Assembly (NCBI GenBank): GCA_028715115.1
Contig: JAQUSN010000002.1
Coordinates: 210,816 to 274,815 of the forward strand
DNA: 64,000 bases
DNA from: Patescibacteria group bacterium
Lineage (GTDB): Bacteria; Patescibacteriota; Patescibacteriia; UBA2591; UBA4787
Direction: 5' to 3'
A program made the translations under genes and the position numbers. Position 1 is the stretch's first letter. Each line of letters begins with the position of its first letter. The notes below the pieces were generated by a model, which searched no databases, had not been told where the DNA came from, and saw only the letters and a program-made list of their open reading frames with translations. Positions 3,288-62,779 of this stretch are shown one piece after another.

Positions 3288-5948
3288 TTACTTAGATGTA
3301 TGCTCTATTTTTAATTTTCTTTTAACCACCGCCTGCGCCGCGGCAATTCTGGCAATCGGTACGCGATATGGAGAACAGCTGACATAATTCATACCTGCTT
3401 CATAACAAAACCCTATGCTAGCTGAATCGCCCCCATGCTCGCCACAAATTCCAATTTTTAAACCTTTCTTTACGCTTCGTCCCTTATTAATGCCAATTTT
3501 TACCAATTGCCCTATTCCCTCCTGATCTAAAGATTGAAACGGATCGGCTGCAATAATTTTTTTATTTAAATAAACCTTTATAAACTTACCTGAATCGTCG
3601 CGTGAAAAACCCATCCCCATTTGCGTTAAATCATTAGTACCAAAAGAGAAAAAATCCGCTTCTTGGGCAATTTGATCGGCTGTTACCGCGGCTCGCGGGA
3701 CTTCAATCATGGTGCCAACCAAATATTCAATCTTAGTTTTATATTGCTTCATAACTTCGGCGGCGATTTTTTTAACCACGTCTTTTTGATTTTTAAGCTC
3801 GTTAACATTACCGACCAATGGAATCATTATTTCCGGAACAACCTTAATATTTTCTTTTTTTAATTCACAGGCTGCAGAAATAATAGCCCGAACTTGCATC
3901 TCGGTAATTTCCGGGTAGGTGATGCCGAGCCGGCAGCCGCGATGACCAAGCATCGGATTAAATTCGTGAAGCTCTTGCGCCTTTGCCCAAATCTTTTCTT
4001 CGGAAATTTTTATTTTTTCCGATAACTCTTTGGCTTCTTTTTGATCCTTTGGCAAAAATTCATGAAGCGGCGGATCAAGGGTGCGAACCGTCACCGGATA
4101 ACCTCTCATCTCTTTGAATAATTCCTTGAAATCTTCTTTTTGAAATGGCAATAATTTATTTAAAGCCGCTCGTCTGGTTTCTTCGGTATCGGCAATAATC
4201 ATCTCCTGTATGTACGGCAGTCTATCTTTGTCAAAAAACATATGTTCGGTTCGGCAGAGCCCAATGCCTTCAGCGCCAAATATTCGCGCCATTTTAGCAT
4301 CGCGCGGCATATCGGCATTGGCTCGTACCTTTAATTGCTTAATTTCATCAACCCATTTCATTAATTGACCAAATTCTCCGCTTAAAGTTGGTTGCACAGT
4401 AGCCACTTTTCCCAAAATAATTTGACCGGTATTGCCATCAAGCGTCAGCCAATCACCTTCATTAACGATATTTTTACCTAAATGAAATTTTTTATTTTTT
4501 TCATCGACTTTCAGTTCTTCACAACCCACCACGCAACAACGGCCCATGCCCCTGGCCACTACGGCCGCATGACTGGTCATACCGCCTCTGGCGGTTAACA
4601 CTCCTTGCGCCACTTCCATACCGTGAATATCATCGGGGCAAGTTTCGGTACGCACCAAAATTACCGGTTTATCTACGCCTAAGGCTGTTGCCTCTTCGGA
4701 ACTAAACACAACATGACCGACTGCCGCCCCTGGTGAAGCCGGCAAACCTCGTCCAATAGCTTGCGATTTAATTTTTGGATCTAAGATTGGATGTAATAAT
4801 TGATTAATTTGCTCCGGCTCAACGCGTAAAATAGCCACCTCTTTGGAAATCATTTTTTCTTTTACCATATCAACGGCATTTTTTATGGCCGCTCGCGCTG
4901 TTCTTTTACCAGTACGAGTTTGTAGAATATACAGTTTATTTTTTTCTACCGTAAATTCAAAGTCCTGCACGTCTTTATAATGTTTTTCTAAACGCTTAGT
5001 AATTGTTTTTAGTTGCCTATATACCAGCGGCATATCTTTGGCTAAACTGGCGATTGGCTGTGGCGTTCTAACTCCCGCCACCACATCTTCGCCCTGGGCA
5101 TTAATTAAATATTCTCCATAAAATTGATTTTCGCCCGTAGCCGGATTTCTTGTAAAACCGACGCCGGTTGCGCAATCGTTGCCCATATTTCCAAAAACCA
5201 TAACCTGAATATTAACGGCCGTTCCTAAATCATCGGATATTTTATTTAAACGGCGATAAGTCTGCGCCCGAGGATTGTTCCAACTTTTAAATACGGCATC
5301 GCGCGCCATTTTTAATTGCTGATACGCATCGACCGGTAAATCATGTTTAGTAATTTCTCTGATTAATTTTTTATACTGACTGATTATCTCTTTTAAATCA
5401 TCTTCCCTTAAATCAAAGTCGTATTTAATATTCCTTTTTTCTTTTATTTCTGTAAGGATTTCTTCGAATTGTTCTTTGGCTATTCCCAAAACCACATTAC
5501 CGAACATTTGAATAAACCGGCGATAAGTATCATAAACAAATCGAGGATTTTTCGTGGTTTTGATTAGATTTACCACATTCTCATCATTCAAACCCAAATT
5601 CAAAATCGTATCCATCATGCCGGGCATAGAAAATCTAGCGCCACTGCGGACTGAAACCAATAACGGGTTTTTACTATCGCCTAATTTTTTATTAACGCTT
5701 TTTTCTATTTTTTTAAGCGCAGATTTTATTTGTTTGTCCAGTTCAGATGGTAATTTATTATTATGATCATAAAAATAATTACAAACCTCGGTAGTAATCG
5801 TAAAACCAGGCGGCACCGGTACTCCAGCCTTGGCCATATCAGCTAACCCCGCGCCCTTGCCTCCCAACGTGTCTTTCATTGTTATATTACCTTCAGTTTC
5901 ACGATCGCCAAAATAATAAACCAATTTCTGCGTTCTTTTTTTTGCCAT
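3288..5948 (-). CDS. ppdK: Pyruvate, phosphate dikinase.
   Basis: 886 aa. N-terminal ATP-grasp region, central phosphohistidine domain (GGMTSHAAVVARGMG) and C-terminal PEP-utilizing TIM barrel. Confidence 0.9.
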   Translation of the reverse strand: MAKKRTQKLVYYFGDRETEGNITMKDTLGGKGAGLADMAKAGVPVPPGFTITTEVCNYFYDHNNKLPSELDKQIKSALKKIEKSVNKKLGDSKNPLLVSVRSGARFSMPGMMDTILNLGLNDENVVNLIKTTKNPRFVYDTYRRFIQMFGNVVLGIAKEQFEEILTEIKEKRNIKYDFDLREDDLKEIISQYKKLIREITKHDLPVDAYQQLKMARDAVFKSWNNPRAQTYRRLNKISDDLGTAVNIQVMVFGNMGNDCATGVGFTRNPATGENQFYGEYLINAQGEDVVAGVRTPQPIASLAKDMPLVYRQLKTITKRLEKHYKDVQDFEFTVEKNKLYILQTRTGKRTARAAIKNAVDMVKEKMISKEVAILRVEPEQINQLLHPILDPKIKSQAIGRGLPASPGAAVGHVVFSSEEATALGVDKPVILVRTETCPDDIHGMEVAQGVLTARGGMTSHAAVVARGMGRCCVVGCEELKVDEKNKKFHLGKNIVNEGDWLTLDGNTGQIILGKVATVQPTLSGEFGQLMKWVDEIKQLKVRANADMPRDAKMARIFGAEGIGLCRTEHMFFDKDRLPYIQEMIIADTEETRRAALNKLLPFQKEDFKELFKEMRGYPVTVRTLDPPLHEFLPKDQKEAKELSEKIKISEEKIWAKAQELHEFNPMLGHRGCRLGITYPEITEMQVRAIISAACELKKENIKVVPEIMIPLVGNVNELKNQKDVVKKIAAEVMKQYKTKIEYLVGTMIEVPRAAVTADQIAQEADFFSFGTNDLTQMGMGFSRDDSGKFIKVYLNKKIIAADPFQSLDQEGIGQLVKIGINKGRSVKKGLKIGICGEHGGDSASIGFCYEAGMNYVSCSPYRVPIARIAAAQAVVKRKLKIEHTSK

Positions 5949-8639: not shown

Positions 8640-8683
8640 TTGTCAACTAATATTGACATAAGCGCATAAAATAATATAATTAA
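8640..8683 (+). promoter_or_regulatory. Promoter of the TTGACA family driving cassette c.
   Basis: TTGTCA/TTGACA at 8640-8659, followed by a TATAAT-like element around 8675-8680. Confidence 0.4.
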
Positions 8684-8684
8684 T

Positions 8685-8954
8685 ATGCCGTATCATTCAC
8701 CGCAAGCAAGAAAAGGAGCAATGATGTCTGTAACGGCCAAGGCGACCGTTTTTAAGCGCAGAGATACGTCGGTTATGACCGGCTGGCCAACTCGCGTCGT
8801 GAGACTTAAGGAGGACGAAACGCCACACGACCAGTCCCTGCACTTGGCGCATATCTGCGAATGCGACGCAGATGACCAGGCCAGAAAAGACGTTCTCTCC
8901 TTCTGGCTGCCCGAAAAATCCCTAAGAGAACACTACGAACCCGTGGAGGTGTAA
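8685..8954 (+). CDS. GC-rich small soluble protein. The start is more likely the ATG at 8724, which is preceded by AAGGAG.
   Basis: The ORF is bracketed by a consensus promoter and a strong terminator. No recognisable family. Confidence 0.45.
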   Translation: MPYHSPQARKGAMMSVTAKATVFKRRDTSVMTGWPTRVVRLKEDETPHDQSLHLAHICECDADDQARKDVLSFWLPEKSLREHYEPVEV

Positions 8955-8969
8955 ATGCGACCCAGCAAC

Positions 8970-9010
8970 AAGGGCCCTGACCGATAAGTCAGGGCCCCTT
9001 ATTTTTATTC
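8970..9010 (+). terminator. Strong rho-independent terminator (AGGGCCCTGAC..GTCAGGGCCCCT + ATTTTTATT).
   Basis: About 11 bp GC-rich stem followed by a T tract. Confidence 0.65.
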
Positions 9011-9652: not shown

Positions 9653-9822
9653 ATGATTTTTATTACAAATTAACTATATATATTATATAATAAAAATAAA
9701 TACAATGTAAGATATCAAAAGTGGATAAAATTTCATTGATTTTTAAATAATTTATCCCTCCCAGGCAGGGGGATGCTTTCTTACATTCCCGCCTTCATTT
9801 TTAATTGCTATGTTGACAAAAG

Positions 9823-9851
9823 GGTAAAAATATGCTATATTTATATCATAA
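9823..9851 (+). promoter_or_regulatory. Promoter TTGACAAAAGGGTAAAAATATGCTATATT (cassette d).
   Basis: -35 TTGACA, 17 nt spacer, -10 TATATT. Nearly the same sequence as the promoter at 13285. Confidence 0.5.
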
Positions 9852-9867
9852 CCAAGGAGGCCTATAA

Positions 9868-10044
9868 ATGTTCGGATTCGGAAGCATCGGCGAATTGCTC
9901 AATGACCCCGCTGGTCCGATCTACTGCGGATTCATCCTGCTGGGTATAACGGTGATACTGGCAATCCCGGGACTGTTCATAGCGGCAATGCTGGACACAA
10001 GACGGGCGAAGAAAGAAGAAGAGGCAAAGGGTAGAGCCTCTTAA
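9868..10044 (+). CDS. Small membrane peptide of 58 aa (MFGFGSIGELLNDPAGPIYCGFILLGITVILAIPGLFIAAMLDTRRAKKEEEAKGRAS).
   Basis: AAGGAGG ribosome-binding site 7 nt upstream. One TM helix and a charged C-terminus. GC-rich. Confidence 0.5.
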   Translation: MFGFGSIGELLNDPAGPIYCGFILLGITVILAIPGLFIAAMLDTRRAKKEEEAKGRAS

Positions 10045-10127
10045 ACCAACCACGGAGGACTTGTTCTAGGTCCACCTCAACAGGTCGGTTCTGTAAAGGA
10101 GCCACTCGTAGGTGGGCCTTTGCTTTT

Positions 10128-10200
10128 ATACAAAAAGACGAGATTGTTCTCGCCTTGTTTTTTATATAAAAAGACGAGTGTTCTTGCTCGTCTTTTTATA
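10128..10200 (+). terminator. Tandem terminators of the 'AAAAAGACGAG..CTCG' family.
   Basis: AAGACGAG TGTTCTT GCTCGTCTT perfect hairpin followed by TTTTAT. An upstream partial copy is GACGAGATTGTTCTCGCC. Confidence 0.6.
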
Positions 10201-12868: not shown

Positions 12869-13284
12869 AAAAACGTTTTTATTTTACTTGTTTAGATATT
12901 AAGATTAAATGCTTAAATTATTTTTTGTATAAATAAAAGATGACCCTAAATAATAAAAGGCTCATTTATTTCTCGGTTCCAAATTATAGTGCAACACCGT
13001 CCAGCCTCCGTTTCGATTATAAAAAACCAGGACAAGCGCTGCCTTTTTGTCTACATTTTGTCAGCATTCAAAGCGCTATCTACTGTCATATTTTAAATAT
13101 TATTAAAATATGATTAACAGAGTATAAAACGCTTCTATTGCTTATAATACAAGAGGACGCTTTAGAGGTCCTCCTGTATATTAAATATATAATTATATCA
13201 TTAATTGTCAAGGCAGGTTTATCCACAAACACAAATATATGCATTAAAATAAGAGCATTTGCGCATCTATTCAATAATTTACTC

Positions 13285-13313
13285 TTGACAAAATTATAAA
13301 ATATGCTAATCTA
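13285..13313 (+). promoter_or_regulatory. Promoter TTGACAAAATTATAAAATATGCTAATCT (cassette e, first unit).
   Basis: Close match to the promoter at 9823. Confidence 0.45.
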
Positions 13314-13346
13314 TATTCATTGATCGAGGGTCTAAAAAGGAGCTAC

Positions 13347-13409
13347 ATGAAGAAGCTGAAGCCCGATCTTACGTTGATGCACACCCTGTACTGCGCGAGC
13401 GGCGACTGA
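13347..13409 (+). CDS. Possible 20 aa leader peptide (MKKLKPDLTLMHTLYCASGD).
   Basis: Good ribosome-binding site (AAAAAGGAG) 6 nt upstream. Followed by an ORF-free GC-rich region. Confidence 0.25.
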   Translation: MKKLKPDLTLMHTLYCASGD

Positions 13410-13580
13410 TCGCGGACCCGGGCCGGCCCGAACCGGTCGATCCATGGAGGAATAATGAGCGGATTCGTCTAAGAACCAGCCAGGTGCGGGTAAAACCCGC
13501 ACTAGTCCCACAATTAGGGGATGGTTCGAACCGGCGAATACATCCCTGAAGGAGCGTCCTGTGGCGCTCCTTTTCTTTTA
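13410..13580 (+). ncRNA. GC-rich untranslated segment ending in a terminator (AGGAGCG..CGCTCCT + TTTTCTTTT). Candidate small RNA or cis-regulatory leader.
   Basis: No ORF. Internal repeats of 'CGAACCGG'. A terminator hairpin at 13549-13580. Confidence 0.25.
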
Positions 13581-13594
13581 TATTATAGCGTGGC

Positions 13595-13623
13595 TTGACA
13601 AAAAACGAAAAAATAAATAATAT
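13595..13623 (+). promoter_or_regulatory. Promoter TTGACA-N17-TAATAT (cassette e, second unit).
   Basis: The track ORF 13595..14116 begins with the TTG of this -35 box. The true start is more likely 13679. Confidence 0.45.
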
Positions 13624-13678
13624 AAATATGGAGAGTTTATTCTCTTTTTCGCAAAGCACGCAAAACACTGGAGGAACC

Positions 13679-14116
13679 ATGGCAGAAGCAACGATGAGGG
13701 TCAACCGCCCATCGCGGTATCAAGACATCGCCGGGATAGCAATCACTATCCTGATTATGATCTTGGTGGCCTCTCCCGGTCTATACCCGATGATCAAGGG
13801 AGGACTGGTGATGAGCGCCAAGACCTCGGGATGGTTGACTACCACAATTCTTGTCGCGTCCGTGATCGTAGGTGTGATAGCGATGTTTGTCCTGGCCGAA
13901 TGGGATGCCCGTTCCAACAGATTCCCTTTCGCCGCCTGGAAGGTCATCCTCTGTACCTACCTCCTCAACTTCATCGTCTCGCTCACTCTCACCTTTGCCG
14001 CCGCAAGATCACCGGCTCACATCGTCTGCGCAATCGTCGGTGGTCTCTACGTCGGCGTCGTCGCCTTCGTAATGCTGTGTCTGTGGGCTATAGGCAGCAC
14101 CGAGGCGGAGCTCTAG
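13679..14116 (+). CDS. GC-rich polytopic membrane protein (about 145 aa, 4 TM).
   Basis: GGAGG ribosome-binding site 4-5 nt upstream of the ATG at 13679. Hydrophobic segments. Followed by complex terminators. Confidence 0.5.
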   Translation: MAEATMRVNRPSRYQDIAGIAITILIMILVASPGLYPMIKGGLVMSAKTSGWLTTTILVASVIVGVIAMFVLAEWDARSNRFPFAAWKVILCTYLLNFIVSLTLTFAAARSPAHIVCAIVGGLYVGVVAFVMLCLWAIGSTEAEL

Positions 14117-14139
14117 TACGCCCTCGGAGAACAAAATAA

Positions 14140-14240
14140 GTAGGGCTCGCAGAAAGCAAAACCAAATGGGTTTCGCCTACTCGCGAGCCCATTTGATTAT
14201 TATAAAAAGACGAGATTACTCTCGCTTTCTTTTTTTTTGT
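14140..14240 (+). terminator. Nested hairpins plus a copy of the shared 'AAAAAGACGAGATTACTCTCGC' terminator module.
   Basis: GGGCTCGC..GCGAGCCC and AAATGGG..CCCATTT stems, then GACGAGATTACTCTCGC followed by T9. Confidence 0.5.
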
Positions 14241-20696: not shown

Positions 20697-20760
20697 ATTT
20701 TGGGGTGGCTCCGCCATTCGCCAATCGGCGAAGGCAGATGCAAGAATGTTAGAACCTATT
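20697..20760 (+). repeat. Copy of the dispersed element (TTTTGGGGTGGCTCCGCC..GGCAGATGCAAGAATGTTAGAACCT).
   Basis: The left end TGGGGTGGCT equals the complement of the 3' end of tRNA-His at 29843. Contains the minigene ATGCAAGAATGTTAG. Confidence 0.5.
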
Positions 20761-26898: not shown

Positions 26899-27014
26899 AG
26901 TTTTAAAGTTAGTTGTTGATAATGGCAGAGTGACCTTTATTATCCCTGCCTATTATGAATATATATTCAAAACTATCTTTTGTCAAATTATACCTGTGGA
27001 TAAGTTAAAATAAA

Positions 27015-27090
27015 AAAATCGCCTAATTAGCAACACTTTTTAGACTCAAGTCTTCTCTAGGTCCCTTATGCAAGGACGTTAGAACCCGGA
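27015..27090 (+). repeat. Copy of the dispersed element (..TCTCTAGGTCCCTTATGCAAGGACGTTAGAACCC). It is the left direct repeat of cassette h.
   Basis: 19 nt (27068-27086, ATGCAAGGACGTTAGAACC) identical to 27712-27730. Confidence 0.55.
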
Positions 27091-27119: not shown

Positions 27120-27147
27120 TTGACAAAAGGATAAAATGTGATATGAT
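27120..27147 (+). promoter_or_regulatory. Promoter CTTGACAAAAGGATAAAATGTGATATGAT (cassette h).
   Basis: -35 TTGACA, 16 nt spacer, -10 TATGAT. Confidence 0.5.
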
Positions 27148-27218
27148 ATAAGTACAGAATTCAATAGAGTCTTCTAATCCCTTGTCTCACGACAAGGATA
27201 TTCTCAAGGAGGTAACTC

Positions 27219-27605
27219 ATGAAAAAGCTGGCCCTGTTTGCAACGTATAGCGTTTTGACGTGGGGGTGCATTTTCGCCACGACCCACAAGCCCCTCCCTG
27301 GCCTCATCGGCATTCTGTTGTATGCAGTATTGGTTCTCTACTTCGATGTCGAGGACCGCAGATGGTGGGCTCGCAACCACAAACGGACACAGTCACCTGC
27401 ACCCAACTTCGACGTCATCACGGGATATAGTTGGCTGATGGTAGGCGCAGTCTCTTTCTTGGTGAGCCTACCCTTCATGCCAAGCACCGCCACCATCTTC
27501 CATGTCTTCGCTCCTACGTTTGTAACGACCATCATCGCCGGAGCTATCAACACGCTGATGAGACTACACCAAAACAGCCACGACCAGAAAGTCGTCAGAG
27601 GCTAA
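27219..27605 (+). CDS. GC-rich membrane protein of 128 aa.
   Basis: AAGGAGG ribosome-binding site 6 nt upstream. 3-4 TM helices. The 5' UTR contains a CCTTGTC..GACAAGG hairpin. Confidence 0.5.
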   Translation: MKKLALFATYSVLTWGCIFATTHKPLPGLIGILLYAVLVLYFDVEDRRWWARNHKRTQSPAPNFDVITGYSWLMVGAVSFLVSLPFMPSTATIFHVFAPTFVTTIIAGAINTLMRLHQNSHDQKVVRG

Positions 27606-27624
27606 GGCCTCGTTCCGACAAATA

Positions 27625-27698
27625 AGGGGACACGAACAGTAGCGTGACCCCTTTTCAGTTAACAAAAAAAGAGTAATCACTTACTCTCTTTTTATTTT
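27625..27698 (+). terminator. Two hairpins, the second being a variant of the shared module (ACAAAAAAAGAGTAATCACTTACTCTCTTTTTATTTT).
   Basis: AGAGTAA..TTACTCT stem flanked by an A tract and a T tract. Confidence 0.55.
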
Positions 27699-27735
27699 AA
27701 GGAGGTCACCTATGCAAGGACGTTAGAACCTGTTG
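27699..27735 (+). repeat. Copy of the dispersed element (AAGGAGGTCACCTATGCAAGGACGTTAGAACCTGTT). It is the right direct repeat of cassette h and contains an SD + ATG-CAA-GGA-CGT-TAG minigene.
   Basis: Identical 19-mer to the copy at 27068. Confidence 0.55.
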
Positions 27736-41282: not shown

Positions 41283-42026
41283 CTACTGCCTTGTCTTGGC
41301 CATGGCCTCCATCAGTCGAGGCCACTCTGCCTTCGGTTTCAAGATCACGTTGCCGGCTGCGATGTCAGCCGCAACTGCCGGATCGTCCTGCTTCCACTGC
41401 TCGGTTGGCTTATTGACCAGAGCCACAACCGGCCTCTTTTCCCATTCCATTTTACCGGAACGGTTCAAGAAACAACCAACCCCAACCAGTCTTGCGCCGG
41501 TAGTCCCAATCGCAGCAGCGGCCTGACCGGTAGTAGAGTAGTTATTGCAGACATCTTCCACCAACAGGCATGGCGCATCGCGACCGATGTCATGACGCGA
41601 CAGAACCAGTTCGGACTGCTCGCGGCTCGTACCGGTAGCCAAGGCCGTCACCCTCTTCTCCAGGAAGGCAAACCGCTTACGCAGCGCCATCGCTACCAAA
41701 GCGGCCAATACGATACCTCCCATAGGTGCACCAATGACGACGTCGAATTGCGAATCGAAATCGCCATGACGCAACTCAAAGCCCAGTCTCTCGGCTTCTT
41801 GTCGAAGAACGTTGGGGTCTTGCTCGAGTGTAGCAACGTTGAAGTAAACGTCGCCGACATACTGCAGTTTCTGCCCATCAGATCCCTCGTAACGGCCAGC
41901 ATAACCGACTAGAGGTCCGAGACGCTTGCCGGTTATGGGGTCTCTTGGACAGGCATAGTAGCCACCCGCGGCATGAAGTATATCTAGCGGATCACTTGCC
42001 GGACCTATTTCTTCCATTTCATTCAC
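41283..42026 (-). CDS. Type I phosphoribosyltransferase, orotate phosphoribosyltransferase-like. GC-rich.
   Basis: PRPP-binding motif LLVEDVCNNYSTTGQAA. Directly downstream of pyrF. Confidence 0.5.
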   Translation of the reverse strand: MNEMEEIGPASDPLDILHAAGGYYACPRDPITGKRLGPLVGYAGRYEGSDGQKLQYVGDVYFNVATLEQDPNVLRQEAERLGFELRHGDFDSQFDVVIGAPMGGIVLAALVAMALRKRFAFLEKRVTALATGTSREQSELVLSRHDIGRDAPCLLVEDVCNNYSTTGQAAAAIGTTGARLVGVGCFLNRSGKMEWEKRPVVALVNKPTEQWKQDDPAVAADIAAGNVILKPKAEWPRLMEAMAKTRQ

Positions 42027-42050
42027 CTCCTTTCATTGGTGAGTTTGGAG

Positions 42051-42953
42051 TTATACGTGCTCGTCGCCAGCGGGAAAAGGAATGTCGCCGCCAGCCGCCC
42101 TGATCTGATCGCGTAGCTTCTCGGCTTCTGCGGCCGGATCGCTGGCGAAGATGATGCCGGACGATGAGTTGATGGTGATGGAACCGGGTCCTGCGAAAGC
42201 AGCCTTGACCGTCTCTTCGACGAATCCCTTCTGCGTTCCGATGCCCGGAATGAGCATCCACATCTCGTTGCCCACGATCTCCCTACATCTTGAAAGGTGC
42301 CAGAAGTAGACCTTGGACTCGTCGCTCGGATCCTTGTGAGCCGCGCCCATGACTACGCCGGCATTCTCGATGACCCCCAGCTCTTTCGACCACTGAAGCA
42401 GATTCTGGACCATGAACTCCCAGAAACGCAGACCGCTCTCCATCTTCGCATCCTAGATAACCCAGGCTTCTTTGTTGCTGGTCCGACCGAGGCCGACTAG
42501 TGCTCGACCCGGACGCTTTTCGTCGATCAGCGACATGAGCGTATCCTTGCCCATGTATCCGACGAAGTTCATCCCATCGGCGTTTTCGAGGCCGAGGTGA
42601 GTATTGCCGTAGAGCCTCTGAGTACGATCGATGTCGCCCCTCTTGCAGTCAACCATCACCGGAATGTCCGGATGATTCGCGTGGATGTAGCCGATGAGCA
42701 TCTTGAGAACCCCAAGCCCATCGGGAATTGCCTCCCAGTGAGCGTGCTGGAACTTGAACATCGACGCAGCGTGTTCGGTATCATCGATGACGCCCATCAT
42801 CCACAGATAGAGAGCGACATGCACAGCACATCCCATCTCCAGGAACCTGGACGGCATCCTCTCGATCAGCGGATCGAGGCCGACACAGACGAGGGAGTTT
42901 GCCCTCTTCTGCCTTTCTGTTAGCTTCTTGCGGAACCGTCTGTCTTCTGCCAT
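42051..42953 (-). pseudogene. pyrF: Orotidine-5'-phosphate decarboxylase (type 2 PyrF) interrupted by an in-frame TAG at 42444-42446.
   Basis: The upstream part has VCVGLDP and MVDCKRGDI (D-x-K-x-x-D). The downstream part has LIPGIGTQ. The two track ORFs (42453..42953 and 42051..42443) are in the same frame, separated by a single amber codon. Confidence 0.65.
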
Positions 42954-44109: not shown

Positions 44110-44203
44110 CGGAGTCTAATCTGGGAGACCTGGATTCGAACCAGGATAGACAGATCCAGAGTCTGCCGTCCTACCGTTAGACGATCTCCCAGATTAGACT
44201 CCG
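44110..44203. repeat. 19 nt inverted repeat (CGGAGTCTAATCTGGGAGA / TCTCCCAGATTAGACTCCG) enclosing tRNA-Gln. It extends the acceptor stem by 11 bp.
   Basis: The arms are perfect reverse complements, at 44110-44128 and 44185-44203. Confidence 0.6.
44121..44191 (-). tRNA. tRNA-Gln (anticodon CTG). No encoded CCA.
   Basis: U1:A72 and G73 as in bacterial tRNA-Gln. T arm CCTGG-TTCGAAT-CCAGG identical to E. coli tRNA-Gln. Anticodon loop CTCTGGA. Confidence 0.7.
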
Positions 44204-44212
44204 CTATACAAT

Positions 44213-44238
44213 ATTCTAACATTCTTAAGAATGTTAGA
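44213..44238. terminator. Perfect 26 nt palindrome TTCTAACATTCTT|AAGAATGTTAGAA, just downstream of the dnaX stop and upstream of tRNA-Gln.
   Basis: Perfect inverted repeat. It shares the 13-mer AAGAATGTTAGAA with the dispersed element. Confidence 0.45.
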
Positions 44239-44264
44239 ATATTATTTTATGAAAAAAATAAAGT

Positions 44265-59204: not shown

Positions 59205-61037
59205 TTATTTTTCTTCTAAATTAATTAAATTCTCAATATTTCTTGAAACGGACTTAGCTACTAGGTGGTGTTTTTTATTATAAGCCATTTGTTTTTCCCG
59301 TCGACGGTTAACTTCGCTGACGGCACGCTTAATCGAACCGGTAATGTTGTTGGCATACAAAATAACGCGACCGCTAACATTGCGGCTGGCCCGGCCCATG
59401 GTTTGAATAAGAGATGTTTCACTACGCAAAAATCCTTCTCGGTCAGCATCTAAAATCGCGACCAGCGTTACTTCGGGTAAATCAAGACCTTCACGCAAAA
59501 GATTCACGCCAACTAAAACATCAAATTTGCCCTGGCGGAATTCATTTAAAATCTGCGTCCGCTCCAAAGTCTTGGTATCCGAATGCATAAACTTGGCCTT
59601 GTAATCTTTTTGTGTCAAAAAATCTGTCAAATCTTCGGCCATTTTTTTGGTTAAAGTATTAACTAAAATTCTTTCTTTTTTAGCGACAACCTTTTTTATT
59701 TCATCCATTAAATCTTCTATCTGGCTGTGGTTGTGGACCTTATCGAAAACCTTGCGCACCTCAACCGGCGGATCAATTAGGCCAGTAGGTCTGATAATTT
59801 GTTCAACCACTTGTTGAGATTTTTTTATCTCCCAATCGCTCGGCGTAGCTGAAGTAAAAATAACCGAACCGACACGTTGTTCAAACTCAGTAAACTTTAA
59901 CGGCCGATTATCAAGCGCTGACGGCAAGCGCCAACCATATTGGACTAAAATTTCCTTGCGGCTGCGGTCGCCTGCATACATACCGCGAATCTGCGGCACG
60001 GCCACGTGCGACTCATCAATGATGGTAAGAAAATCCGGCCAGCCGTTTTTTTTGGGGAAAAATGACAATAATGTTTCCGGCGGTTCGCCGGCCAGCTTAC
60101 CACTCAAGTGCCGTGAGTAATTTTCAATGCCATGACAATAACCCACGGTCTTAAGCATTTCTAAATCATATTTTGTCCGCCGTCCCAAACGGTCGGCTTC
60201 TAAATACAATTTTTTCTGTTTGAAATATTTTAGCCGTTCTTGCAATTCCTGCCTAATATCTTTAATGGCTTGTTCTCGTTGCGGTTCGCTGCTGATAAAA
60301 TGTTTGGGCGGAAAAATAACAATATCTTGCAGTTTATTGACTATTTTTCTAGTAGTCGGATCAACCAACATTATTTCATTAACCTTCTGATCTAATAACT
60401 CTAAATAATAAACTACCTCGCCCGAGGCTGGCATTATCTCAACGATATCGCCGCGAGCCCGAAATAATCCGCGCGCTAAAACGCCGCTTGTCCGCTCAAA
60501 ATGCATTCTGACTAATTGTCTGATTAAATCGCCGCGCGTTAAGGGCTTGCCGATTTCTAAATGTAAAGTCGCCGACAAATAATTTAATGGCACTCCTAAG
60601 TTATAAATACAAGAAACCGACGCGACAATAATCACGTCGCGGCGGGACAATAAAGCACTAGTAGCTTTGTGGCGCAAACGATCTATTTCTTCATTTATCA
60701 TCGCCTCTTTCTCAATATAAGTATCGCTAGTCGGCAGATAAGCTTCGGGCTGATAATAATCGTAATAAGAAACAAAATAATTGACCGAATTATGAGGAAA
60801 AAAATTTTTATATTCTCGATAAAGCTGAGCGGCTAAAGTTTTATTCGGCGCCATAACTAAAACCGGCTGGTCAAAATGGCTTAAGACATTGGCCGCGGTG
60901 AAAGTTTTGCCTGAACCAGTCACACCCAAAAGCGTCTGGCGGTCATGTCCCTTTTTTAAACCAGCTACTAGTTTTTTTATCGCTTCCGGCTGATCACCAG
61001 CCGGGCGATACTTTGATTCTAATTTAAATAAAGACAT
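59205..61037 (-). CDS. uvrB: Excinuclease ABC subunit B.
   Basis: [10 protein letters not shown] Walker A. Helicase motifs. 610 aa. Confidence 0.9.
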
Positions 61038-61174
61038 ATTTATATAATAAAATAATTTTCGTTAATTCAAGACTAACCTCAACTAACCAAAAAGTCCCGC
61101 TTGTCGCGGTCTAGGGGGCTATAGATCTGTAAAGATATTATAGCATAAATATAAATTTTAGCCAGAGATAAAAA

Positions 61175-61490
61175 GAGGAGGGCCAGCTTTCGCCGGCCCT
61201 CATTGCACTCCAGGTTGTAGTCTGTCTTTCGACAAGACCGAGCTCGCCATCCGAGACAACGATAGCCTTCTTAAGGCTTAGGTTATAACCCCGGCTGTTC
61301 GCCGAGCACCTGTTTTGTTGTCTCCGATAACTCGCCCGTATTCTAGTAGTCCTTCTCCACTGCGCCTCCATGGGGAGCCGCGCGACTCGACGCCGCACGA
61401 CGGTTTAGAGCTTCCGGATCTTGCTCGACCGTACAGCGCACCAGTGAAACACCGGCGCGGCGGACAGACGATATCCGTTAGGACGTATCC
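61175..61490 (-). ncRNA. GC-rich transcription unit of about 315 nt with a strong promoter and terminator but no credible ORF. Candidate small RNA.
   Basis: On the minus strand: promoter TTGACA-N17-TATTAA (61525..61497) and terminator GGGCCGGCGAAAGCTGGCCC followed by TCCTCTTTTTATC (61179-61201). The only long ORF (61138..61398) is Arg-rich and reads through the terminator. Confidence 0.3.
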
Positions 61491-61546
61491 ATGATTATTA
61501 ATATACCAAAAACAAAAAAAATGTCAAGGGATTTTTCCACAGACCT

Positions 61547-61571
61547 AACCCCCGCTTTCTTAGAAAGCGGG
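61547..61571. promoter_or_regulatory. Perfect 12 bp-arm palindrome CCCCCGCTTTCT t AGAAAGCGGGGG between divergent promoters, abutting the -35 box of the promoter at 61574.
   Basis: Perfect inverted repeat. It could be an operator or a bidirectional hairpin. Confidence 0.4.
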
Positions 61572-61573
61572 GG

Positions 61574-61602
61574 TTGACAAAAGCCAAAAAATATATTAAA
61601 AT
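61574..61602 (+). promoter_or_regulatory. Promoter TTGACAAAAGCCAAAAAATATATTAAAAT (cassette k).
   Basis: -35 TTGACA, 17 nt spacer, -10 TAAAAT. Confidence 0.5.
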
Positions 61603-61622
61603 AAAAACATTCAAGGAGGCCT

Positions 61623-62003
61623 ATGGCTCTTCCCATAACGAAAAATCCACCTACGACGATTAGTAGAGGTGACGTCATGAGGCGCCTAAGAGAATCCGGA
61701 AATCCTGTCTGGAGAAGCTTTGTCCTGCCAAGGCGCGAACATCTACGGCCCGATGAGAAACTCCGACTCTTCAGCTTCGCACCGGTTCAAGAGACTCTTC
61801 TGCCGATCCCCTTGTCAGTTGACGAACTGAGAATAGAAGCGATCGAAGGCGACCGGATCATCTTTGCCGATCCGTGGCAAGACGGCATTACGCCAAGACC
61901 CAGTCCGCTGTCCATCGTCGAAATACTCACAGACACAGTCAGGCTGACGCCGGAAGGAGAGTTCACGCTCTATCTGGTACGCCTTGAACGCCCCCGTCAC
62001 TAA
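61623..62003 (+). CDS. GC-rich hypothetical soluble protein (126 aa).
   Basis: AAGGAGG ribosome-binding site 3-4 nt upstream. Promoter and terminator bracket the ORF. No family. Confidence 0.45.
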   Translation: MALPITKNPPTTISRGDVMRRLRESGNPVWRSFVLPRREHLRPDEKLRLFSFAPVQETLLPIPLSVDELRIEAIEGDRIIFADPWQDGITPRPSPLSIVEILTDTVRLTPEGEFTLYLVRLERPRH

Positions 62004-62007
62004 TCGA

Positions 62008-62050
62008 AAGCCGGCTCGCGCTATACGCGGGCCGGCAATTAGTTTTTATG
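62008..62050 (+). terminator. Terminator GCCGGCTCGCG CTATA CGCGGGCCGGC followed by AATTAGTTTTT.
   Basis: About 11 bp GC stem with one mismatch. Confidence 0.55.
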
Positions 62051-62056
62051 AATATT

Positions 62057-62779
62057 TTATCTTTTATTGATTGCCCATAAAAATCCCATCTTCTTGTCAA
62101 ATTGCGAAGGGAAAATTTTCACGCTGAATCCATTACTTCTTAACTTTTCTTCTATTAAGCGATAATCGCGCCAATTATCATTATGATACTCTAAAACCAT
62201 GGCTTCAATTATTTTAAAATCATCTATAGATAAACTATCGATTATCTGATATTCGCCGCCTTCGATATCCATTTTTAACAAACCTATTTCGGTAATTTTA
62301 TTTGCTTGACGCCAATCGCTCAAATTATATATTTTTACCTTTTGAAATTTTTGCTCCGGAGCTGCTTCTTGCTCGGCTAAATGATGATTATGATTATCAG
62401 CTGCTATGACCAATTCCCCTTCTCCACTTTTCTCGCCTATCGCCGCTCTGATTAAATTAATCCGTAAATTATTATCTATATTTATTTTTTCAAGCGCTTT
62501 AAAATTATTTTCTTCCGGCTCGAAGGCGTAAATAAAAACATTCGGGTTTAAGGCCCGACAATATAAACTAAACAGGCCAATGTGGGCTCCGATATCTAAA
62601 ATCGGCGCTTTGGCCTGTTTTATTTTATCTATAGCGCAACGATATTCTTCTATTTTAAATATCTCATTAAAAACACTCTGGTCAACTTCGTCGCGCAATA
62701 ATACTTTAAAATCACATTGATTATAATTTAAGTTAATTAATTGCATATTAAGGCTGTAAAGAAGTCTCTGAATCGCCAT
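62057..62779 (-). CDS. FkbM family methyltransferase.
   Basis: DIGAHIGLFS and LKMDIEGGE motifs. Confidence 0.7.
   Translation of the reverse strand: MAIQRLLYSLNMQLINLNYNQCDFKVLLRDEVDQSVFNEIFKIEEYRCAIDKIKQAKAPILDIGAHIGLFSLYCRALNPNVFIYAFEPEENNFKALEKINIDNNLRINLIRAAIGEKSGEGELVIAADNHNHHLAEQEAAPEQKFQKVKIYNLSDWRQANKITEIGLLKMDIEGGEYQIIDSLSIDDFKIIEAMVLEYHNDNWRDYRLIEEKLRSNGFSVKIFPSQFDKKMGFLWAINKR

Follow-up and report, generated by a model that had tools for sequence, protein, structure and literature searches.

Screens by the Breaker laboratory found long GC-rich intergenic regions to be enriched for structured RNAs (PMC6429828, PMC8723152), and candidates of this GC-rich intergenic region (GC-IGR)/DIMPL kind were accepted only with covariation among homologues (PMC6429828, PMC8723152, PMC11109978). 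Noncoding RNA genes also lie beside small protein genes in the type III toxin-antitoxin systems (ToxIN, CptIN and TenpIN), in which a tandem-repeat antitoxin RNA is located upstream of, and co-directional with, a gene for a ToxN/AbiQ-type endoribonuclease toxin. 'Moron'-like cassettes, in turn, consist of promoter, gene and terminator. Here we describe a stretch of 64,000 nucleotides (nt), hereafter the window, from a Patescibacteria group bacterium (GenBank assembly GCA_028715115.1, contig JAQUSN010000002.1, positions 210,816 to 274,815 of the forward strand), in which a GC-rich unit without a plausible open reading frame (ORF) runs from its own promoter to its own terminator directly upstream of uvrB. 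We tentatively propose that this unit is the gene of an orphan RNA of about 320 nt. It stands back to back with a gene for a 126-amino-acid (aa) protein, termed p126.

A GC-rich unit with its own promoter and terminator lies upstream of uvrB

The window has a GC content of 38.2%, and its most GC-rich non-coding stretch (57.6% at 61175-61495) falls within the 1.02-kb gap between uvrB and a gene for an FkbM-type methyltransferase (61038-62056), which holds two back-to-back units. The noncoding unit and the genes flanking the gap comprise the following features:

61527..61500, minus strand: promoter of the noncoding unit, with TTGACA (61527-61522), a 16-nt spacer and a TG-extended TATATT (61505-61500); 11/12 matches
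61170..61492, minus strand: ORF-less GC-rich transcript of about 320 nt including its terminator, predicted from promoter and terminator
61201..61178, minus strand: intrinsic terminator of the noncoding unit, GAGGGCCGGC-GAAA-GCTGGCCCTC and then the tail CTCTTTTTAT
59205-61037, minus strand: uvrB, one flank of the interval
62057-62779, minus strand: FkbM-type methyltransferase gene, the other flank

A first-pass annotation, made by a model from the letters of this DNA, had recognized divergent promoters with a perfect palindrome between them, and all of these elements are present, with coordinates that differ by 1-3 nt. For the noncoding unit it had given a TTGACA-N17-TATTAA promoter at 61525..61497; a promoter does stand there, although that register represents an alternative -10 element, and we prefer 61527..61500 with the 16-nt spacer, for which transcription is predicted to start near 61492. 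The window contains 19 promoter-like sites that match at 11 or more of 12 positions, whereas shuffled sequence has 3.0 +/- 1.9; this is about six times chance, so most sites of this strength are expected to be real promoters. The strong terminator that had been placed at 61179-61201 is found as a hairpin at 61201..61178, with a stem of 10 bp (8 of them GC pairs), a GAAA loop and a T-run, and it lies upstream of the promoter that belongs to uvrB itself. Having its own promoter and its own intrinsic terminator in matching orientation, the unit shows the layout of an independent noncoding RNA gene, in which a near-consensus sigma-70-type promoter would drive a GC-rich noncoding RNA of about 320 nt and the strong terminator would stop transcription before the uvrB promoter.

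The unit has no coding potential. Its sole long frame (61138..61398, minus strand, 86 aa) is Arg-rich and crosses the terminator, as the first-pass annotation had stated, and no start codon with a ribosome-binding site was found in any frame of 61175-61495; genetic codes 4 and 25 rescued no ORF. The period-3 signal of the unit is 1.28, compared with 2.4-10.8 in seven coding sequences of the window, GC-rich ones included. Searches with tblastn and tblastx against all fetched loci returned no protein-level similarity except for one tblastx match, to locus L012, which we rejected as compositional: it crosses a stop codon and lies in a Pro/Ser-rich surface protein. The earlier description of an ORF-less, GC-rich unit that spans promoter to terminator therefore holds for the promoter, the terminator, the GC content and the ORF scan.

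Folding predictions differ between the two strands. The transcribed strand has a minimum free energy of -141 kcal/mol and a z-score of -4.17 relative to dinucleotide shuffles, compared with -2.16 for the opposite strand. When the terminator is left out the z-score is -3.21, the lowest among ten segments tested, and the RNA may be structured; its predicted fold includes a three-way junction (61235-61345).

A second contig, JAQTNO010000020.1 (GCA_028713815.1; locus L062), is identical to the window across the 2.8 kb compared. In its NCBI record no gene is called in the 1.02 kb between the methyltransferase gene and uvrB (L062 8981-10001), and p126 is unannotated.

The unit matches no known RNA family

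At gathering thresholds, a search of the whole window against Rfam 15 returned three tRNAs only, and ARAGORN found tRNA-His, tRNA-Gln and tRNA-Glu and no tmRNA. The first-pass annotation had suggested tmRNA, RNase P, 6S or signal recognition particle (SRP) RNA as identities to be checked; none of these families appeared in 61000-62100 even at E-values up to 10, and the suggestion falls. The best match of any family, to the Bradyrhizobium small RNA BjrC174, scored 22.5 bits, half its gathering score of 45, and the part of it that aligns well is the terminator hairpin. The loci of relatives also gave no Rfam match.

Searches for homologues were equally negative. With the RNA or the whole module as query, nhmmer, blastn and tblastx detected no true match in 52 GTDB loci, in 8 loci from 7 related organisms or elsewhere in the window itself. 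Phage, plasmid and viral collections held no match, and neither did exact-pattern scans of viral and JGI contigs, a method that is poorly sensitive to diverged RNA. No tandem repeats were detected in 61000-62100 at a score of at least 30, no internal family of direct repeats was found in the unit, and no flanking direct repeats of note occur around 61175-62050. The neighbours of the noncoding unit are uvrB, p126, the FkbM methyltransferase gene and a gene for a Gmad2/Germane protein; no reverse-transcriptase gene, as would be expected of a retron, is among them.

A divergent gene encodes the rare protein p126

The second unit of the interval, and the region that it shares with the noncoding unit, contain these features:

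61574..61602, plus strand: p126 promoter, TTGACA-17 nt-TAAAAT, 11/12 matches, of the TTGACAAAA promoter type
61613..61619, plus strand: p126 ribosome-binding site AAGGAGG, which ends 3 nt before the ATG
61623..62003, plus strand: p126, an ORF for a 126-aa orphan protein, GC 54%, period-3 signal 2.87
62010..62036, plus strand: p126 terminator, a hairpin convergent with the FkbM methyltransferase gene
61547..61575, no strand: perfect palindrome of 14+1+14 nt, AACCCCCGCTTTCT-T-AGAAAGCGGGGGTT
61533..61541, plus strand: DnaA-box-like 9-mer TTTTCCACA, 6 nt upstream of the -35 box of the noncoding unit

The plus-strand promoter at 61574 had been assigned to a promoter family, and rightly so, as the TTGACAAAA type occurs at 10 sites in place of the 0.14 expected. 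The terminator of p126 may work in both directions. The reality of the 126-aa gene is supported by a single homologue, P0002 (117 aa, 59% identity; JGI sample 3300075153), which was the one match in 5.8 billion protein clusters and adjoins the same methyltransferase and Gmad2/Germane genes; its contig begins 120 nt upstream of the P0002 gene. Judged by this comparison of sequence and neighbourhood, p126 is a real gene that has been conserved: a second organism has it in the same place.

No match to p126 was found in Pfam, NCBIfam, PADLOC, PHROGs or the sequences of the PDB, and an exact-pattern scan of JGI metagenomes with the p126 profile found none. A HMMER profile search of 1.84 billion representatives retrieved P0002 together with weak, multi-repeat matches to Fn3/Ig-like repeat proteins, which we regard as compositional and at most a hint of an all-beta fold. 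The AlphaFold2 model of p126 has a mean predicted local distance difference test (pLDDT) score of 42.7 and is hence too poor for a fold search.

A perfect palindrome separates the two promoters

Between the two -35 boxes lies the palindrome, which spans about -62 to -34 relative to p126 and about -55 to -83 relative to the RNA. It had been described as a perfect 25-nt palindrome at 61547-61571; the palindrome exists, although this core sits at 61549-61573 and the dyad extends over 61547-61575, where it overlaps the -35 box of p126 (61574-61579) by 2 nt. Shuffled sequences yielded no occurrence. The palindrome is present once in the 64 kb and, copies of the same genome aside, is unique among all fetched loci; the regulon that the first-pass annotation had hoped to trace through further copies cannot be defined.

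A dyad that covers a promoter element is what an operator would present, and we infer from this position that the palindrome may be an operator over the -35 box of p126. A dimeric DNA-binding protein bound to the 29-bp palindrome could then repress p126. Recurrence and an adjacent cognate regulator, the other marks of an operator, were not found, as the palindrome is single-copy and p126 has no recognisable DNA-binding domain, although its structure model is unreliable. As an intrinsic terminator the palindrome was rejected: the sequence that follows the hairpin is TTGACAAAAG on the plus strand and TTAGGTCTGTGG on the minus strand, no T-run occurs on either, and it is not in the list of predicted terminators. 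In locus L063 of a relative, a similar CCCCC...GGGGG hairpin that abuts a TTGACA box is the terminator of the upstream gene, so a relic hairpin is a fair alternative for the palindrome in the window.

The DnaA-box-like 9-mer also occurs elsewhere. Motifs of the TTWTCCACA type lie at 61533-61541, 13219-13227 and 26995-27003, in each case 6-9 nt upstream of the -35 box of a strong minus-strand promoter. Three of 22 strong promoters have such a motif near the -35 box compared with 0.23 expected; in the window as a whole the motif is not enriched (5 found, 6.9 expected).

uvrB has its own conserved promoter and leader

Downstream of the terminator of the noncoding unit, uvrB possesses a promoter and a leader, of which counterparts were located in relatives (loci L058, L060, L061 and L063):

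61165-61137, minus strand: uvrB promoter, CTGGCT-17 nt-TGcTATAAT, downstream of the noncoding-unit terminator
61118-61087, minus strand: uvrB leader, a hairpin followed by a T-run, conserved in relatives
Promoter-leader region as a whole: window 61087-61165 (minus strand); L058 5790-5885; L060 2790-2870; L061 1330-1400; L063 12735-12805

The UvrB proteins of these four loci are 78-83% identical, and all four have the uvrB promoter and leader and lack the RNA. Since uvrB retains its own promoter and leader in relatives without the RNA, the RNA is not the uvrB leader. In the relatives that could be read the RNA is not found upstream of uvrB, where a cis-acting leader would be expected to recur. 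Predicted duplexes between the RNA and the uvrB leader were no better than those of shuffles, a result that carries little information because the method allowed unrealistic long-range duplexes.

The leader itself follows the motif CCCC(C)-YAR-GA-NCC(C)-loop-GGG-NN-TTTTTG shortly 5' of the start codon and is common to five organisms. It matches no Rfam family, and by its form may be an attenuator or other regulatory leader.

The interval is a variable island in relatives

The backbone of the region in relatives consists of genes for a Mur ligase, a rubrerythrin or desulfoferrodoxin, the Gmad2/Germane protein and the FkbM methyltransferase, a variable segment, and then genes for DUF2196, a helix-turn-helix (HTH) protein and a 139-aa protein, small genes, uvrB and uvrA. 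The interval from the FkbM methyltransferase gene to the DUF2196 gene or uvrB differs in every relative:

L063 7690-12811: a pair of N6/N4 DNA methyltransferases of the restriction-modification type, a NERD protein and a 417-aa protein
L064 3953-7234: a DUF559-type protein and a PIF1 helicase
L065 2967-6788: orphan genes
Window 61038-62056: p126 and the RNA only

The DUF2196, HTH and Zincin genes are missing from all 64 kb of the window, and none of the nearest relatives that could be read has the p126-RNA module. Immediately ahead of the uvrB promoter, L058 and L060 fill the slot with a GC-rich gene for a protein of 118-125 aa, which has its own TTGACA promoter and terminator and is co-directional with uvrB. 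This gene shares the position and layout of the RNA without sharing its sequence, and we rejected the idea that the noncoding unit is a decayed copy of it because no sequence similarity was found between the two.

The L058 gene (5393-5749, plus strand) encodes a Trp-rich protein of 118 aa, 57% identical to the 125-aa protein of L060 (1958-2335), and has its own promoter, ribosome-binding site and terminator. For this place in L058 the public annotation calls a 147-aa gene on the minus strand (5344-5787), apparently choosing the wrong strand.

Other GC-rich segments and repeats occur in the window

Four more GC-rich (53-56%) cassettes were identified on the plus strand, in a genome that otherwise has nearly all of its genes on the minus strand. 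All four combine a TTGACA promoter with a strong ribosome-binding site and a strong terminator, and none of their proteins has a match in Pfam:

8653-9000, plus strand: cassette for a 77-aa protein
9813-10130, plus strand: cassette for a 58-aa protein
13595-14200, plus strand: cassette for a 145-aa protein (p145)
27120-27660, plus strand: cassette for a 128-aa protein (p128)

The p128 cassette is bracketed by a 28-nt direct repeat whose copies (27059-27086 and 27703-27730) are 93% identical. The 20-nt core of this repeat, TATGCAAGGACGTTAGAACC, is present in five copies (the others at 20737, 24937 and 29437), all on the plus strand, compared with 0 expected; the repeat could stem from duplication at an insertion site, or it could be an intergenic motif that recurs.

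Another GC-rich unit bounded by promoter and terminator, about 260 nt long, lies at 13285-13579 (plus strand). Its only ORF with a ribosome-binding site has 20 codons, and its period-3 signal is weak (1.48). It has no Rfam match at gathering thresholds and could be another noncoding or leader-peptide RNA.

A larger block at 41283-42950, with a GC content of about 59%, contains a gene for a pyrE-like phosphoribosyltransferase and one for orotidine monophosphate (OMP) decarboxylase (pyrF), the latter split into two ORFs (N-terminal part 42453-42950, C-terminal part 42051-42440). The block has the look of pyrimidine-synthesis genes that were acquired, and one of these genes may be a pseudogene. 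As this block encodes the pyrE-like protein and the split pyrF and not ribosomal proteins, we discarded the notion that high GC content marks highly expressed native genes. Together with the cassettes, it suggests that GC-rich, probably acquired DNA is common in this genome.

A perfect AT-rich palindrome of 17+17 nt (44210-44243; AATATTCTAACATTCTT / AAGAATGTTAGAATATT) adjoins tRNA-Gln (44120-44192).

What the noncoding unit is likely to be

Given its promoter and terminator, we think it reasonably probable that 61170-61527 (minus strand) yields a discrete noncoding transcript, whatever its use. That the unit is in addition a functional, lineage-specific orphan RNA gene of about 320 nt is the reading we prefer, although only tentatively, placing it a little short of an even chance. 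An RNA of this kind would most likely act stand-alone in trans, and its expression may be coordinated with that of p126 through the common upstream region. Several results weigh against such a function. The folding excess of the unit is only modestly larger than that of GC-rich coding controls (z -2.89 for the pyrE-like gene and -2.48 for p145), which fold nearly as well, and it is thus suggestive and not decisive. An RNA homologue is absent from every collection searched (60 related loci, phages, plasmids and the pattern scans), so that neither conservation nor covariation can be shown; the palindrome, being single-copy, bears nothing that marks it as a recognised operator; and the genome holds other GC-rich, probably acquired segments, the split pyrF among them, so high GC content at this place does not by itself imply a structured RNA. 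The main rival reading is a transcribed relic: DNA gained by horizontal transfer, such as a small-gene cassette now dead, would have decayed between a promoter and a terminator that still work and would have no function as RNA. The several GC-rich cassettes with a like promoter and terminator layout, the pyrE-like gene beside its split pyrF, and the GC-rich gene that fills the L058/L060 slot in the orientation of the RNA all speak for a relic, as do the lack of detectable homologues and the folding of the coding controls. Against a relic, the unit shows no coding trace: no ribosome-binding site, a period-3 signal of 1.28, and in the 60 related loci no tblastn or tblastx similarity beyond the compositional match. 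The promoter and terminator are moreover intact and near-consensus, which would be unexpected in long-dead DNA, and the folding excess is specific to the transcribed strand. Genomic context thus favours a relic while the signals, the absent coding traces and the strand-specific folding oppose it, and we consider a relic possible but on the whole doubtful.

The position of the unit beside p126 raises a further reading, which we consider unlikely: an undescribed RNA-protein accessory module, toxin-antitoxin-like or anti-phage, in which the RNA would neutralise or regulate p126 and the palindrome would be their common control site within a defence-type island. The RNA and p126 lie side by side in divergent orientation and both exceed the genome in GC content, p126 is extremely rare in the manner of accessory genes, and in relatives the same interval carries the N6/N4 DNA methyltransferases with their 417-aa partner, the NERD protein, the DUF559/PIF1 pair or orphan genes. 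However, no model in PADLOC, Pfam, NCBIfam or PHROGs matches p126, tandem repeats are absent from the RNA, and the divergent layout is not the co-directional order of RNA, terminator and toxin seen in type III systems. Duplexes predicted between the RNA and the p126 mRNA were no better than shuffles, although again the method allowed unrealistic long-range duplexes and so carries little information, and repeats shared by the RNA and p126 regions are no longer than expected by chance. The remaining readings are each largely excluded. That the unit acts in cis as a uvrB leader or riboswitch, or encodes a small protein, is very unlikely: the RNA reads in the direction of uvrB, with its terminator 140 nt ahead of the uvrB start codon, yet in between stand a TG-extended TATAAT promoter and the conserved hairpin of the leader, both of which recur without the RNA in L058, L060, L061 and L063, while no small ORF with a ribosome-binding site exists and the long frame runs across the terminator. 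A highly divergent universal RNA (RNase P, tmRNA, 6S or SRP RNA) would fit the size and GC content, and RNAs of Patescibacteria can be divergent; this is nonetheless extremely unlikely, as the Rfam searches at gathering thresholds and at E-values up to 10 and the ARAGORN search for tmRNA were negative, and an essential RNA at this position would not be expected to be missing, as this one is, from the seven related organisms read.

Noncoding RNAs of the Candidate Phyla Radiation have, to our knowledge, been little studied. If functional, the orphan RNA would represent a new mid-sized class of structured RNA from this group, and if it works with p126 the pair would be a novel type of accessory module made of RNA and protein, carried by an ultrasmall symbiont in a defence-type island. 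At present, the locus offers a well-delimited candidate from one genome, along with the description of a variable island beside uvrB and of a conserved uvrB leader.

Comparison with known systems

The arrangement of a noncoding RNA gene beside a small protein gene in an accessory or defence-type region is one that the unit and p126 have in common with type III toxin-antitoxin loci. In contrast to those loci, the RNA here has no repeats, its gene and that of p126 point away from each other, and no toxin family matches p126. As for the palindrome, it resembles the palindromic operators of divergent promoters in being a perfect dyad between back-to-back promoters with a 2-nt overlap of one -35 box, whereas its 14-bp arms, 1-nt centre and G+C-rich core are more hairpin-like, and neither a cognate regulator nor a second copy is apparent.

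No homologue of the unit exists in the searchable collections, unlike the GC-IGR/DIMPL candidates with their covariation. In other respects it is close to them: a long, GC-rich (57% vs 38%), ORF-less stretch with its own promoter and terminator and a folding energy below that of shuffles. Compared with the 'moron'-like cassettes, the unit is without any reading frame and no phage or plasmid similarity was found, while it shares with them a consensus promoter, a terminator, a composition unlike that of the host, variable presence among relatives and the company of several similar cassettes in the same genome.

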